In this document: in pieces, positions 702-9,701 of the stretch
How the letters are laid out: every line of letters begins with the position of its first letter
Numbering within the stretch: position 1 is the first letter of the stretch
Source: Verrucomicrobiota bacterium
GTDB taxonomy: Bacteria > Verrucomicrobiota > Verrucomicrobiia > Chthoniobacterales > UBA6821
Direction: 5' to 3'
Length of the DNA: 9,701 nt
NCBI GenBank assembly: GCA_008932965.1
Contig: WBXG01000062.1
Location: 1-9,701 of the forward strand
The notes under the pieces: model-generated
Database searches by the model: none
What the model was told of the DNA's origin: nothing
What the model saw: the letters and a program-made list of their open reading frames with translations, nothing else
Translations under genes and position numbers: made by a program

Positions 702-727
702 CGATCAGTATGAAATATGCAGGTTAA
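702..727 (+). repeat. Solo arm of the palindromic repeat family (CGATCAGTATGAAATATGCAGG + TTAA), tip pointing toward gspE
   Basis: Differs at one position from the arm at 4301-4326 (CGATCAGTATGAAATATGCGGG+TTAA). No partner arm or element core is detectable to its left. Confidence 0.75.
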
Positions 728-2671: not shown

Positions 2672-4264
2672 ATGGAAACAGAACATCTTAATACGCGTGC
2701 AGCAGGTATTGTTGCTGGGGCTGTGATGCTCAGTCGCTTGCTTGGTCTGGTGCGCGAACTCATTTTTGCAGGACTCTTTGGTGCAGGGCGCGGGATGGAT
2801 GCTTTTATTACTGCATTTCGAGCTCCCAACTTGCTACGAGATCTTTTTGCCGAGGGGGCTTTGTCAACGGCCTTTGTCACTGTTTTTTCTCAGGAAATTG
2901 CAAAACATGGTGATGTAGCAGCCTGGAAATTGGCTTCCAAGATGATCACCCTAACGACTCTGTTTATGAGTCTCATCACGCTGCTTGGGATTTTTTTTGC
3001 ACCACAGCTTATTGCAATTCTTGCTCCTGGTTTTGCTCCAGAAAAAGCAGAACTCACTATTTTTCTAACTAAGGTGATGTATCCCTTTATTTTGCTCGTC
3101 TCACTTGCCGCTCTGGTTATGGGGATGCTCAATGCAAAAAATATTTTTACTGCACCAGCCCTTGCCTCGAGTTTTTTTAATTTGGGATCGATTATTGGAG
3201 GTGTTGCCTTTGGTTGGTATTGTGATCCTCACTTTGGAGAGCGAGCCTTAACTGGGTTAGCTCTTGGAACCTTGCTTGGAGGGTTGCTGCAGTTGATAGT
3301 ACAATTTCCCAGTTTATCCCAAGCTGGGTTTCGTCTGGTTCTTGATTTTCAATGGCGTGATCCAGGAGTAAAACAGGTTCTCCTTCTAATGTTACCTGCA
3401 GTGATTGCTGCAAGTGCTGTTCAGATTAATGTGATGGTCAATAGTATTTTTGCCTCCTACCTCGGAGATGGTCCTGTAAGCTGGCTCTCGTATGCCTTTC
3501 GTCTCATGCAATTACCCCTTGGTGTTTTCGGCGTAGCTATTGCAACAGTAACCTTACCCCTCGTTTCAAGGATTGCTGCCCTAGGGGATTTGAGCAAATT
3601 TCGATCCACTCTTGCCCGTGCCTTGCGACTGGCCCTTTTTTTAACTCTTCCCTCAGCTGTGGGACTCATGATTTTAGCACAGCCTATTATTGCTCTTATC
3701 TATGAGCGTGGAAAATTTCATCCCCACGACACAGTACAAACCGCTTCAGCACTTCAATTCTATGCCATAGGACTTGTTTCTTATTCCTGTATTAAAGTTC
3801 TTTCGCCTGCCTTCTATGCTTTGAATCATCGTTGGACCCCAATGATGGTCAGTTTTCTCTCGATCGCACTGAATTTATTATTTAATTGGATTTTTATTTT
3901 TGAGCTCAAGATGGGGCATCGAGGCTTAGCTCTTTCGACAGCATTATCGGCCACTCTTAATTTTGGACTGCTCTATTTTTTTATGGTCCGTTTTGCAGGA
4001 GCACTTCACTTTCGCGAGTTGTTATCGACGTTTTGGCGTTGTGGGATTGCAACCCTTCCAATGATAGCACTCGTTGCCTTCTCCTCCCATTGGCTTGAAC
4101 ATCTTCATGGAATGCACCTCATCACTAGGGTAGGTGGTTTACTCCTCATCATTGCTCTTGCAAGCGGGCTTTTTATAGCAGGATGTATCTTTTTGAAAGT
4201 AAAGGAGACCTCGGATTTTTTGGTGATTTTAGAACGACGCTGGAATCGTGTGCGTGGCAGTTAG
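2672..4264 (+). CDS. murJ: Lipid II flippase MurJ (MviN family, MOP superfamily)
   Basis: 530-aa polytopic membrane ORF. The N-terminus is characteristic of MurJ: AGIVAGAVMLSRLLGLVRELIFAGLFGAGRGMDAFITAFRAPNLLRDLFAEGALSTAFVTVFS. Later LPLVS and FYA motifs and about 14 hydrophobic segments also fit. It starts 19 nt after the gspE stop, so co-transcription is likely. Confidence 0.93.
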   Translation: METEHLNTRAAGIVAGAVMLSRLLGLVRELIFAGLFGAGRGMDAFITAFRAPNLLRDLFAEGALSTAFVTVFSQEIAKHGDVAAWKLASKMITLTTLFMSLITLLGIFFAPQLIAILAPGFAPEKAELTIFLTKVMYPFILLVSLAALVMGMLNAKNIFTAPALASSFFNLGSIIGGVAFGWYCDPHFGERALTGLALGTLLGGLLQLIVQFPSLSQAGFRLVLDFQWRDPGVKQVLLLMLPAVIAASAVQINVMVNSIFASYLGDGPVSWLSYAFRLMQLPLGVFGVAIATVTLPLVSRIAALGDLSKFRSTLARALRLALFLTLPSAVGLMILAQPIIALIYERGKFHPHDTVQTASALQFYAIGLVSYSCIKVLSPAFYALNHRWTPMMVSFLSIALNLLFNWIFIFELKMGHRGLALSTALSATLNFGLLYFFMVRFAGALHFRELLSTFWRCGIATLPMIALVAFSSHWLEHLHGMHLITRVGGLLLIIALASGLFIAGCIFLKVKETSDFLVILERRWNRVRGS

Positions 4265-4326
4265 AGTGGATATTTCAAACTGATCGCGACTTTTTCATCA
4301 CGATCAGTATGAAATATGCGGGTTAA
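4261..4326. repeat. Minimal (core-less) copy of the palindromic element: 22-nt arm, 14-nt loop, 22-nt arm; possible bidirectional terminator hairpin
   Basis: The left arm is 4265-4286 (AGTGGATATTTCAAACTGATCG), the loop is 4287-4300, and the right arm is 4301-4322 (CGATCAGTATGAAATATGCGGG). The inner 17 nt of the arms pair with one mismatch. The flanks are TTAG (4261-4264) and TTAA (4323-4326). It lies between the convergent murJ and entericidin genes. No U-tract follows on either strand, so terminator function is not established. Confidence 0.7.
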
Positions 4327-4481
4327 TGATTGCTCATCGACCTGCCGACTGCATTAGCCCCAGCAGCAACATCAGAACCGACGGTGCTGACATCACGACC
4401 CATGCCGCTAATAGTGTTACATCCAGTGATCCCAACAAGTGTGATAACAATCATAGATAATGAGAGAATTAGTTTTTTCAT
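4323..4481 (-). CDS. ecnB: Entericidin A/B-family small lipoprotein (52 aa)
   Basis: Own translation of the minus strand: MKKLILSLSMIVITLVGITGCNTISGMGRDVSTVGSDVAAGANAVGRSMSNH*. It has a lipobox ITG|C. The mature part CNT..G.G.D....G......A matches the pattern I recall for E. coli entericidin B (...[25 protein letters not shown]...). GGGG lies 4 nt upstream of the ATG. It is too short for the supplied ORF track. The A versus B assignment is arbitrary. Confidence 0.8.
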   Translation of the reverse strand: MKKLILSLSMIVITLVGITGCNTISGMGRDVSTVGSDVAAGANAVGRSMSNH

Positions 4482-4536
4482 AGGCCCCGTTGATGCCAAA
4501 ATTGAGATGGTTTGGCTACTTTTTTTTCTAAAAAAG

Positions 4537-4720
4537 TTAACCCGGATGTTTCATACTGATCGTGACGAGGAGGCCGCGAAGGCTGATGGGGTAAGGCAGG
4601 CGAGCATTTTGATGTAGGGCTGTATGTGTACATACTGCCCAAATCAAAATGGGAGTCTAACGCAGCATCCATCTGACTTCCCGGCTTCCGTAGTAGATCG
4701 GTAGGAAATATGCGGGTTAA
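4537..4720 (-). mobile_element. Full-length 176-bp palindromic MITE-like element (4541-4716) with flanking TTAA/TTAA; non-autonomous, no transposase
   Basis: The arms are 4541-4562 (CCCGGATGTTTCATACTGATCG) and 4695-4716 (AGATCGGTAGGAAATATGCGGG), in inverted orientation. TTAA lies at 4537-4540 and 4717-4720. The reverse complement aligns without gaps to 8437-8612 at about 125/176 identities (hand count). Strand is given relative to the copy at 8433-8616. Confidence 0.8.
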
Positions 4721-4742
4721 CCCGAATATTTCATGCTAATCA
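4721..4742 (-). repeat. Additional left-type arm abutting the TTAA of the preceding element (GGGTTAACCC junction); possibly the start of a decayed, internally deleted copy extending to about 4822
   Basis: CCCGAATATTTCATGCTAATCA matches the arm at 8437-8458 (CTAAGATATTTCATGCTCATCT) at 16/22 positions. Downstream there is patchy similarity to the element core (CAACTCCT, TGAGC, TGCATG, CTCCTGC in the same order). A weak right-arm-like GATGATGAAGAGG precedes CTAG at 4823-4826. Confidence 0.6.
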
Positions 4743-8396: not shown

Positions 8397-8402
8397 AGGG
8401 GA
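8397..8402 (+). promoter_or_regulatory. Shine-Dalgarno-like AGGGGA, 9 nt upstream of ATG 8412
   Basis: It is the strongest SD-like sequence in the window. It supports ATG 8412 as the ancestral and probably current start of the autotransporter gene. The internal GTG at 8617 has no comparable SD. Confidence 0.5.
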
Positions 8403-8411
8403 TAACCCTTT

Positions 8412-9701
8412 ATGAAGAAAAACCAAGCTCTTCTAGCTAAGATATTTCATGCTCATCTAATACTGCAACCGGGAAGCCAGTTGGATACAGCATCAAACTC
8501 CTATTGTGACTTGAGCCGTTTGGATGCATGCAGCTCTGCTTCTAAATACTCGCAAGCCAGGTCCTATCAGCCTTCGAAGTTTCCTCGTTACTATCAGTAT
8601 GAAATACACTGGCTAGTGCTGCTTATTATCGTGATCAGTCAATTGTTGGTGTCACATGTCATTGCACAATCATCAACTAATAATCTATACGTTGGTAGTA
8701 ATAGCTCTGGCCAGACGACCACTTTCACAAGTGGTACTAATTCCTACAACAACACCTATGTTGGTTATGCAAGTGGTGCTTCCAATAATAGCCTGAGTAT
8801 TATTAATGCAGGAACCCAACTTACAAATAGTTCATCCCTCATTATTGGCGTTGAGGGAGCAAATAATTCAATGACGATCTCCAGTGGTGGAAGAGTTGTC
8901 AATAATAGTGGAGTGATTGGATCTAGTAACTCTTCTTCTAACAACTCCGTTTTTGTGACTGGCACTGGATCCGTTTGGACTAACAGTGGCAATCTCACTA
9001 TTGGTCTTACTGGAGCAAATAATACTCTCACTATTGCAAATCGAGCTACGGTATATGCACGCAGTGGAGTCATTATAGGTAGCAATGGGATTCTCAAAGG
9101 AAATGGCACTCTTAATGCCTCAGTAACCAATAATGGACTTCTAGCTCCTGGATATCCTACAGGGAAATTAACCATTAATGGGAATGTCGCACAAAGCTCG
9201 AGTGGGACCCTCCAAATCAAAGTGGTAAATTCAAACGCTTACAGTAAACTTCAAGTCAATGGTAGTGTCACTCTTGCCGGCACCTTAGAAATCACCCCTA
9301 TTGAAAGTTCACTAAGCTATGGAGAGAAATTGACTTTTCTAAATTCATCAGGGCCGATTAAAGGAAGCTTCAATACCGTTCAAGTAGATGAGCCCTATTG
9401 CCGTGGCCGAGTTCAGATCATTGGAGACCCACAAGCCATAGTCACCATTGCTCCTACAAGCTACACATATTTAGCCCAGAATCAAAATCAAACCAATGTG
9501 GCCACTGCTCTTGATAGCTTCATCCCAGCAATTAGTGGGGATGAGCTTCTCGTTGCAACTGGCCTTGATTCTCTCACCGCTGCACAATATCCAGCAGCCT
9601 TGAATGCCATCATGCCCATCCTTTACCAATCCCTCTCTACGATTGCTTTCAATATCGACAATGCCCAGAATCAAGAACTCATTCAGCGCCTCTGGGGAGT
9701 C
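8412..9701 (+). CDS. Autotransporter (type Va) adhesin-like protein, first 430 codons (3' end beyond the window), carrying a 60-codon in-frame element insertion in its signal peptide
   Basis: Own translation, open from ATG 8412 to 9701 in frame. The N/S/T-rich passenger has strand-loop-strand type repeats (NNSVFVTGTGSVWTNSGNLTIGLTGANNTLTIANRATV). A typical pre-barrel segment follows (NNGLLAPGYPTGKLTINGNVAQSSSGTLQIKV...LQVNGSVTLAGTLEI). Then comes the junction/start of the autotransporter beta-domain (NQTNVATALDSFIPAISGDELLVATGLDSLTAAQYPAALNAIMPILYQSL). It is not in the ORF track because it is open-ended. Whether translation through the insert yields an exported protein is unknown. Confidence 0.85.
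   Translation, partial: MKKNQALLAKIFHAHLILQPGSQLDTASNSYCDLSRLDACSSASKYSQARSYQPSKFPRYYQYEIHWLVLLIIVISQLLVSHVIAQSSTNNLYVGSNSSGQTTTFTSGTNSYNNTYVGYASGASNNSLSIINAGTQLTNSSSLIIGVEGANNSMTISSGGRVVNNSGVIGSSNSSSNNSVFVTGTGSVWTNSGNLTIGLTGANNTLTIANRATVYARSGVIIGSNGILKGNGTLNASVTNNGLLAPGYPTGKLTINGNVAQSSSGTLQIKVVNSNAYSKLQVNGSVTLAGTLEITPIESSLSYGEKLTFLNSSGPIKGSFNTVQVDEPYCRGRVQIIGDPQAIVTIAPTSYTYLAQNQNQTNVATALDSFIPAISGDELLVATGLDSLTAAQYPAALNAIMPILYQSLSTIAFNIDNAQNQELIQRLWGV
8433..8616 (+). mobile_element. Full-length 176-bp palindromic MITE-like element (8437-8612) with flanking CTAG/CTAG, inserted inside the autotransporter coding region
   Basis: The arms are 8437-8458 (CTAAGATATTTCATGCTCATCT) and 8591-8612 (CTATCAGTATGAAATACACTGG). 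CTAG lies at 8433-8436 and 8613-8616. It aligns without gaps and at equal length with the reverse complement of 4541-4716. Confidence 0.8.

Follow-up and report, generated by a model that had tools for sequence, protein, structure and literature searches.

Selfish DNA that multiplies within protein-coding genes while sparing them has long had its prime example in the Rickettsia palindromic elements (RPEs). They measure about 150 bp and lie in frame inside many genes (Ogata et al. [quoted passage not shown] The tetranucleotide YTAR is the target motif reported for the insertion sequence (IS) family IS5 (PMC10359306), and long autotransporter signal sequences are described as having a domain organisation of the n1-h1-n2-h2-c type (PMC2805444). 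Here we analyze a 9,701-nt stretch of DNA (the window) from contig WBXG01000062.1 (assembly GCA_008932965.1; Verrucomicrobiota, Chthoniobacterales, UBA6821), described as belonging to a freshwater bacterium, in which an autotransporter gene carries a MITE inside its signal peptide. We consider it very probable that the MITE inserted at a CTAG between the n-region and the h-region, that the reading frame was kept, and that the protein is still exported with the insert removed along with the signal peptide. The MITE family is previously undescribed, resides in frame within genes as RPEs do, represents a new phylum for this behaviour, and includes the rare case of an insertion within a signal peptide. 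Full-text literature searches turned up no paper that connects Verrucomicrobia, Chthoniobacterales or Spartobacteria to such elements.

The frame that opens at ATG 8412 runs without a stop through 430 codons as far as the window's end at 9701, and the two copies of CTAG lie 180 bp apart from start to start, a gain of 60 codons. A first-pass annotation, made from the letters of the window alone, had named this start, an AGGGGA 9 nt upstream of it and the 180-bp spacing of CTAG 8433 and CTAG 8613, all of which were confirmed in the sequence. It had also read the insert as free of stops in the gene frame, with the open reading frame (ORF) continuing into the passenger, and our translation matches its peptide exactly. 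The features of the interrupted gene are as follows.

8397..8402, + strand: Shine-Dalgarno-like AGGGGA, from reading of the sequence, 9 nt 5' of the ancestral start; AGAGGA stands at the same place in the orthologous contig L003
8412..8432, + strand: ancestral start and n-region codons (MKKNQAL) of the autotransporter signal peptide, from translation; L003 has GTG-KKNQVL there
8433..8436, + strand: left copy of the CTAG target-site duplication, its CTA coding for Leu in the gene frame; CTAG/CTAG flanks occur in 22/95 family copies
8437..8612, + strand: MITE body of 176 bp in sense orientation, with terminal inverted repeats (TIRs) at ~8437-8457 and ~8592-8612; it encodes AKIFH...QYEIHW in the gene frame
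8481..8483, + strand: in-frame TTG within the element; ATG in the family consensus, L003 and P0002, in which two orthologues gene callers put the start here
8523..8615, + strand: slowly evolving 3' half of the insert, encoding SKYSQARSYQPSKFPRYYQYEIHWL; basic, net +2 over the last 20 residues, and adjoining the h-region
8613..8616, + strand: right copy of the CTAG target-site duplication, from reading of the sequence
8616..8666, + strand: intact h- and c-regions of the signal peptide (VLLIIVISQLLVSHVIA), with predicted cleavage after Ala85 (8664-8666), before QSS
8667..9701, + strand: autotransporter passenger and linker; the gene runs past the end of the window, and the beta-barrel domain is visible only in orthologues

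The gene is assigned as an autotransporter by its orthology with P0001 and P0003, both of which carry a PF03797 beta-domain (29.9 bits against a cut-off of 26 in the truncated P0001) that the window stops short of. The junctions of the insert recur in contigs L001 (JGI) and L002 (Logan), which are 100% identical and come from the same population, and again in the orthologous contig L003 of a different metagenome-assembled genome (MAG; GCA_021733705.1). These shared junctions exclude an assembly artefact.

Deletion of 8437-8616 yields MKKNQALLVLLIIVISQLLVSHVIA/QSSTNNLYVGSNSSGQTT, a 25-aa signal peptide with n-, h- and c-regions. The homologues P0007, P0021 and P0010 have ordinary signal peptides of 23-29 aa that end directly before the same (D/N)LYVGSNSS motif and carry no extension; the reconstruction is therefore the ancestral state, and the view that the element splits the n-region from the h-region, already taken in the first-pass annotation, is borne out by the match with these homologues. 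The interrupted N-terminus as it now stands keeps its hydrophobicity peak, and the basic residues earlier remarked on at the end of the insert amount to a net +2 in the 20 residues that precede the h-region, equal to that of the ancestral MKKNQ. Sequence comparison indicates that the insertion is old and predates the split of the window, L003 and P0002. The insert of L003 sits at the same CTAG, its element sharing 87.5% nucleotide identity, and P0001 and P0002 (87% and 94% identical proteins, the latter compared at the protein level only) carry the peptide of the insert; the window copy shares 73% identity with the family consensus, where the median copy shares 81%. An empty CTAG site, which had been suggested as a check, was found in none of the orthologues, which instead share the insertion. 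They thus carry the 60-aa extension, yet this extension is clearly similar to genomic repeat copies, whereas the earlier doubt concerned an extension lacking such similarity.

One genome per species was scanned with a 22-base terminal pattern. This uncovered at least 84 stretches, nearly all of them in four MAGs of Chthoniobacterales/"Spartobacteria"; matches to the 22-mer in one MAG each of Pedosphaerales and Planctomycetaceae are due to chance, and no element is present there. The loci sample, 590 kb in total, was chosen by the terminal-repeat pattern and comes from fragmented MAGs, and densities and genic fractions drawn from it are indicative only. A profile search with nhmmer recovered 242 non-redundant family copies in these loci, where 322 family termini were counted, and the window copy matches the profile with E=1e-51. 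Among 95 unique full-length copies, 54 have a length of exactly 176 bp plus two 4-bp flanks, 184 bp being the modal length, and in 64 the left and right flanks are identical (TTAA 33, CTAG 22, CTAA 8, TTAG 1). In the family alignment conservation stops at these flanks, with none further outward. The consensus ends are CCCGCATATTTCATACTGATC and its complement, giving TIRs of roughly 21 bp.

Two pairs of occupied and empty alleles, both from the related metagenome contigs L004 and L005, show a gain of exactly 180 bp and a 4-bp duplication. One pair concerns a homologous autotransporter, where P0005 is P0004 with 60 residues added; the DNA of the occupied allele reads GCC-TTAG-(176 bp)-TTAG-CGC, against a single TTAG in the empty allele. 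In a protein of ~1,650 residues encoded on the same contigs, L005 has CTAG-(176 bp)-CTAG where L004 has GTAG. With TIRs of ~21 bp, a 4-bp YTAR target duplication and many dispersed copies, the family is one of MITEs, and its 176-bp body, which has no coding capacity for a transposase, is of the size expected of a MITE. The pairs and the matching flanks also substantiate the mobile inserted element with a 4-bp duplication that the first-pass annotation had proposed. Its description of the element as palindromic holds for the ~21-bp terminal repeats and fails for the window copy as a whole, whose folding relative to shuffled sequences gives z = -0.47 as RNA and z = +1.67 as DNA; the family consensus folds better than shuffled sequences (z = -3.0). 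A structured RNA or known RNA family was rejected for the window copy, as there is no Rfam match for the element and its folding is no better than that of shuffles. No promoter or terminator within the element rises above shuffled expectation.

The 4-bp YTAR target duplication is a feature that the family shares with IS5 and its MITEs. No IS with matching ends and no transposase turned up in the 590 kb of sampled loci, and the family looks like an IS5-type one by its target motif only. Other IS families, such as IS701, may use 4-bp targets of this kind.

The element and its duplication together measure 180 bp, and each insertion therefore keeps the reading frame. The phase in which YTA of the target is read as a codon (YTA/R) is one of two phases that allow a YTAR target inside an ORF, and in it 51/95 copies are open in the sense and 43/95 in the antisense direction; the other four frames are open in 0-2/95 copies, being closed by stops in the terminal repeats and in the TAR of the flank. 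The family consensus is open on both strands in the YTA/R phase, and the element also has an internal in-frame ATG. We found 26 full copies, roughly a quarter of those of full length, inside ORFs that reach at least 150 codons past the element. The hosts include PheT (phenylalanyl-tRNA synthetase beta), GlnD, PyrF (OMP decarboxylase), a low-molecular-weight phosphotyrosine phosphatase, PMT-type glycosyltransferases, an OprB porin, an FtsX permease and a PD-(D/E)XK nuclease, and in recognisable host proteins the insertions divide Pfam domains or set them apart from one another. A profile search run exhaustively over 1.84 billion representative proteins placed the sense-frame peptide in 225 clusters. 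Of the best 150 clusters, ~25 are proteins of at least 200 residues, among them 3-dehydroquinate synthase (AroB), aldose 1-epimerase and 5-formyl-tetrahydrofolate cyclo-ligase; the remaining clusters are short 'hypothetical proteins' on intergenic copies, often starting at the internal ATG of the element. The consensus peptides have no Pfam match. Selection for open frames was considered through comparison with a randomly mutated consensus, where the observed number exceeded the expected one, but the control is unsound owing to the subfamily structure and is not relied on.

Like RPEs, these are short, high-copy palindromic repeats with an open frame, found in frame in many unrelated genes, some of them housekeeping genes, whose protein gains a conserved peptide and is not destroyed. 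The hosts differ, being MAGs of free-living freshwater and soil Verrucomicrobia as opposed to the obligate intracellular Rickettsia, as does the length, 176 bp against about 150 bp for RPEs (PMC10969869), and the present family is open in the same phase on both strands. By this comparison the element is RPE-like in its behaviour and is not an RPE, the likeness being one of function. Clear TIRs, the YTAR duplication and occupied and empty alleles make the mode of spread evident in this family, whereas such hallmarks are not known to be established for RPEs. ERIC, BOX and Anabaena MITEs are likewise MITE-type repeats that sometimes lie inside ORFs and contribute peptide segments; their intragenic copies, however, are exceptions, while here the share in long ORFs approaches a quarter of full-length copies and the length with duplication is a multiple of three. 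The family thus offers a second, independent RPE-like system, in free-living Verrucomicrobia, with the advantages of a legible insertion mechanism (TIRs, YTAR duplication, empty alleles) and of hosts that are ordinary enzymes of known fold. A bolder proposal, which we advance tentatively and regard as possible but unlikely, is that the family is adapted to life in coding sequence, as the first RPE-like 'protein-coding selfish DNA' outside Rickettsiales with visible hallmarks of transposition, and that the window copy has been retained as a functional long autotransporter presequence.

In the window gene, the MITE transposed into the CTAG in codons 8-9, between the basic MKKNQ and the hydrophobic core, with the frame kept by the 180-bp gain and the open YTA/R phase. 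The last ~20 element-encoded residues, net +2, would then act as the n-region, and the preprotein would still be recognised by Sec through a presequence of 85 aa from ATG 8412 or of 62 aa from the internal TTG/ATG. Signal peptidase would cut after VIA and discard the element peptide, leaving the mature protein unchanged. An unchanged mature protein would explain why the insertion has long been tolerated, and a signal peptide, from which the element peptide would be discarded, may be an unusually forgiving site for such an insertion. The insertion also offers a natural experiment on the amount of added sequence that a Sec signal can accommodate between n-region and h-region.

Selection since the shared insertion was estimated from one DNA pair, the window against L003, with small counts. 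Within the insert, the first 30 codons evolve at the neutral rate (nonsynonymous divergence dN 0.24, synonymous divergence dS 0.20), and the last 31 codons about four times more slowly (dN 0.056); nucleotide differences number 18/90 in the 5' half and 5/93 in the 3' half (Fisher p=0.003). This gradient bears on where translation begins. A start at the internal TTG 8481, which would turn the old n-region and the 5' third of the insert into an untranslated leader and give a cleavable presequence of 62 aa, is a variant of our reading that differs in the start site only, and we hold it to be plausible, if short of probable. It would fit the neutral evolution upstream of about codon 24 of the insert and the conservation downstream, the in-frame ATG that the consensus element has at this position, the ATG present there in L003 and P0002, where gene callers begin, and the many called ORFs that start at the same profile position. 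The window codon, however, is TTG with only a weak purine-rich GGGAAG upstream, and the high divergence extends ~7 codons past it. The ancestral start is kept in both lineages (ATG in the window, GTG in L003) together with the Shine-Dalgarno-like motif and KKNQ, and in neither lineage has the frame from 8412 been closed.

Conservation of the 3' half could also mean that the element stretch has been co-opted as a functional long presequence, comparable to the extended signal peptide region (ESPR) of other autotransporters, that tunes targeting or the rate of translocation. As in ESPR and other long autotransporter signals, an N-terminal extension precedes a classical n-h-c signal peptide in a protein of type V secretion, and MKKNQ, ALLAKIFHAHLIL, the basic stretch, the h-region and VIA form a layout like n1-h1-n2-h2-c. 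Among the three orthologues, Q/R/K and E/G substitutions leave the positive charge unchanged or increase it, and the copy is unusually diverged from the consensus. Unlike ESPR, a conserved and vertically inherited motif, the extension here is a transposon copy that homologues lack, and a Pfam search with the first 100 residues matched no family, not even ESPR, at E<=10. Neutral evolution prevails over half of the insert, a basic n-region as a minimum requirement can account for the conservation of the other half, and the orthologues are only three. We therefore judge such co-option improbable.

A further possibility is that the insertion crippled export or expression and left a decaying pseudogene or a non-exported protein, an outcome that the first-pass annotation had entertained. 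Sixty residues between the n- and h-regions are far outside normal signal-peptide geometry, omega over the whole insert is about 1.1, and other copies do disrupt genes, as in the asnB split in L065. The insertion nevertheless predates the split of the window, L003 and P0002, and the downstream ORF is intact in all three. Omega is 0.21 in the passenger and linker, close to the 0.20 of the neighbouring glycosyltransferase gene; purifying selection on the gene therefore continues, and this speaks against a crippled product. The h- and c-regions are almost unchanged (one conservative substitution, two synonymous ones), and conservation extends to the basic 3' half of the insert, all of which makes loss of function decidedly improbable. 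A true start at the in-frame GTG 8616-8618, which the first-pass annotation had placed at 8617, would put the element in the 5' untranslated region and make the upstream MKKNQAL a coincidence, and other 'N-terminal' copies are evidently upstream elements read through by chance (L045, L047, L080), but it is hardly credible here, as its product (MLLIIVISQLLV...) would have neither a charged n-region nor a Shine-Dalgarno-like motif, as that annotation itself had seen, as taking the element out gives back a 25-aa n-h-c signal peptide whose length and position agree with those of homologues, as the Shine-Dalgarno-like motif, start and KKNQ are conserved in L003, and as TTG 8481 is the better candidate for a restart.

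Several points weigh against our preferred reading, that of a frame-keeping MITE whose peptide leaves with the signal of a still exported protein. Export and cleavage of the product are steps that we infer. With an omega of about 1.1 across the insert, most of its peptide is unconstrained and might not be translated at all, and the estimates of selection share the narrow base of a single pair. Several of the 26 copies in ORFs lie near ORF starts and are probably upstream elements read through by chance. An exact-junction pattern and an insert-independent h-region pattern each gave 0 matches in a metagenome collection that lacks this region, making the result uninformative on the empty allele. 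Lastly, no TIR pair 0.4-4 kb apart in the sampled loci encloses a transposase that could belong to an autonomous partner, although fragmented MAGs usually lose IS copies and the absence is weak evidence. ORFs between TIR pairs are ordinary genes or an unrelated PD-(D/E)XK protein, and the solo ends in the collected loci share no repeated long interior. The partner is expected to have CCCGCATATTTCATAC... ends, a 4-bp YTAR duplication and a DDE transposase.

Individual copies elsewhere illustrate the range of outcomes in coding sequence. In L011, a PMT-family glycosyltransferase gene (780-2690, - strand) holds an antisense-frame copy (2450-2633) between a basic N-terminal stretch (..KRDLLRRVYY) and the first hydrophobic helix (ALLLAVGAYFYGL), the same topology as that of the window insertion. 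In L065 (233-2176), asparagine synthase is broken into GATase and Asn_synthase ORFs that meet at a MITE copy (1300-1483), and some genic insertions thus do harm. This 5.6-kb contig has 16 raw nhmmer matches to the element profile, in which both strands of one copy can count. The 576-aa protein P0258 has a Vut_1 transporter domain at 26-164, the element peptide at 337-402 and an FtsX C-terminal domain at 455-561; two adjacent genes may have been joined into one ORF by an open MITE copy, or the copy may have been read through by gene callers.

Within the family, the encoded peptides form mosaic subfamilies, with cores ...DLLRRPGSQMDAALDSHCDL... and ...DSAAACEHLMDTASASNCSSGSMKHTAVVAIHHLPCL... recombined among copies, and a further class has termini 250-290 bp apart. 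A true copy lies at 1687-1959 of L085 (CAIKYO010000408.1), a 2-kb contig labelled Burkholderiales, which is probably mis-binned Chthoniobacterales and not a case of horizontal spread.

The family also leaves its mark on public databases, where its repeats fragment MAG assemblies and create well over 100 spurious 'hypothetical proteins' and misplaced start codons. P0106-P0225 and others, well over 100 'hypothetical proteins' of 44-107 aa in NCBI, JGI and ENA annotations of these MAGs, are translations of MITE copies, and the same artefact shifts the annotated starts of real genes, P0001 and P0002 among them. The independent metagenome contigs L001 and L002 both end 8 bp past the element (window 8624), and L002 additionally starts inside the MITE copy at 4537-4720; assemblies are broken here by MITEs and perhaps also by variable passenger repeats. 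Compared with window 8800-9090, the passenger of the orthologue (P0001/L003) is longer by 102 residues, about two extra SSGGxVVN..SSSNNSVLVTG units, and the repeat copy number therefore differs between lineages.

The window holds further copies and remnants of the family.

702..727, + strand: solo terminal repeat ending in TTAA
4261..4326, unstranded: internally deleted mini-copy with two terminal repeats around a 14-bp core; flanks TTAG and TTAA
4537..4720, - strand: second full MITE copy, 176 bp with TTAA on each side; intergenic, nhmmer E=1e-56
4717..4741, + strand: solo terminal repeat abutting the full copy 4537-4720, with TTAA common to both

The two full copies, 4537-4720 and 8437-8612, stand in opposite orientation and share 72-74% identity. 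At the mini-copy, the TAG of the left flank TTAG is the stop codon of murJ (2672-4264). Since every YTAR target includes a TAA or a TAG, stop codons lend themselves to insertion, and MITE copies may accumulate right at gene ends. Between the mini-copy and the second full copy lies a small ORF (4323-4481, - strand) that encodes MKKLILSLSMIVITLVGITGCNT..., a product of ~52 aa with a lipobox-like ITGC, and from its sequence looks like an entericidin-type small lipoprotein. The 64-aa ORF that overlaps it (4478-4672, - strand) is probably spurious because it lies on the MITE.

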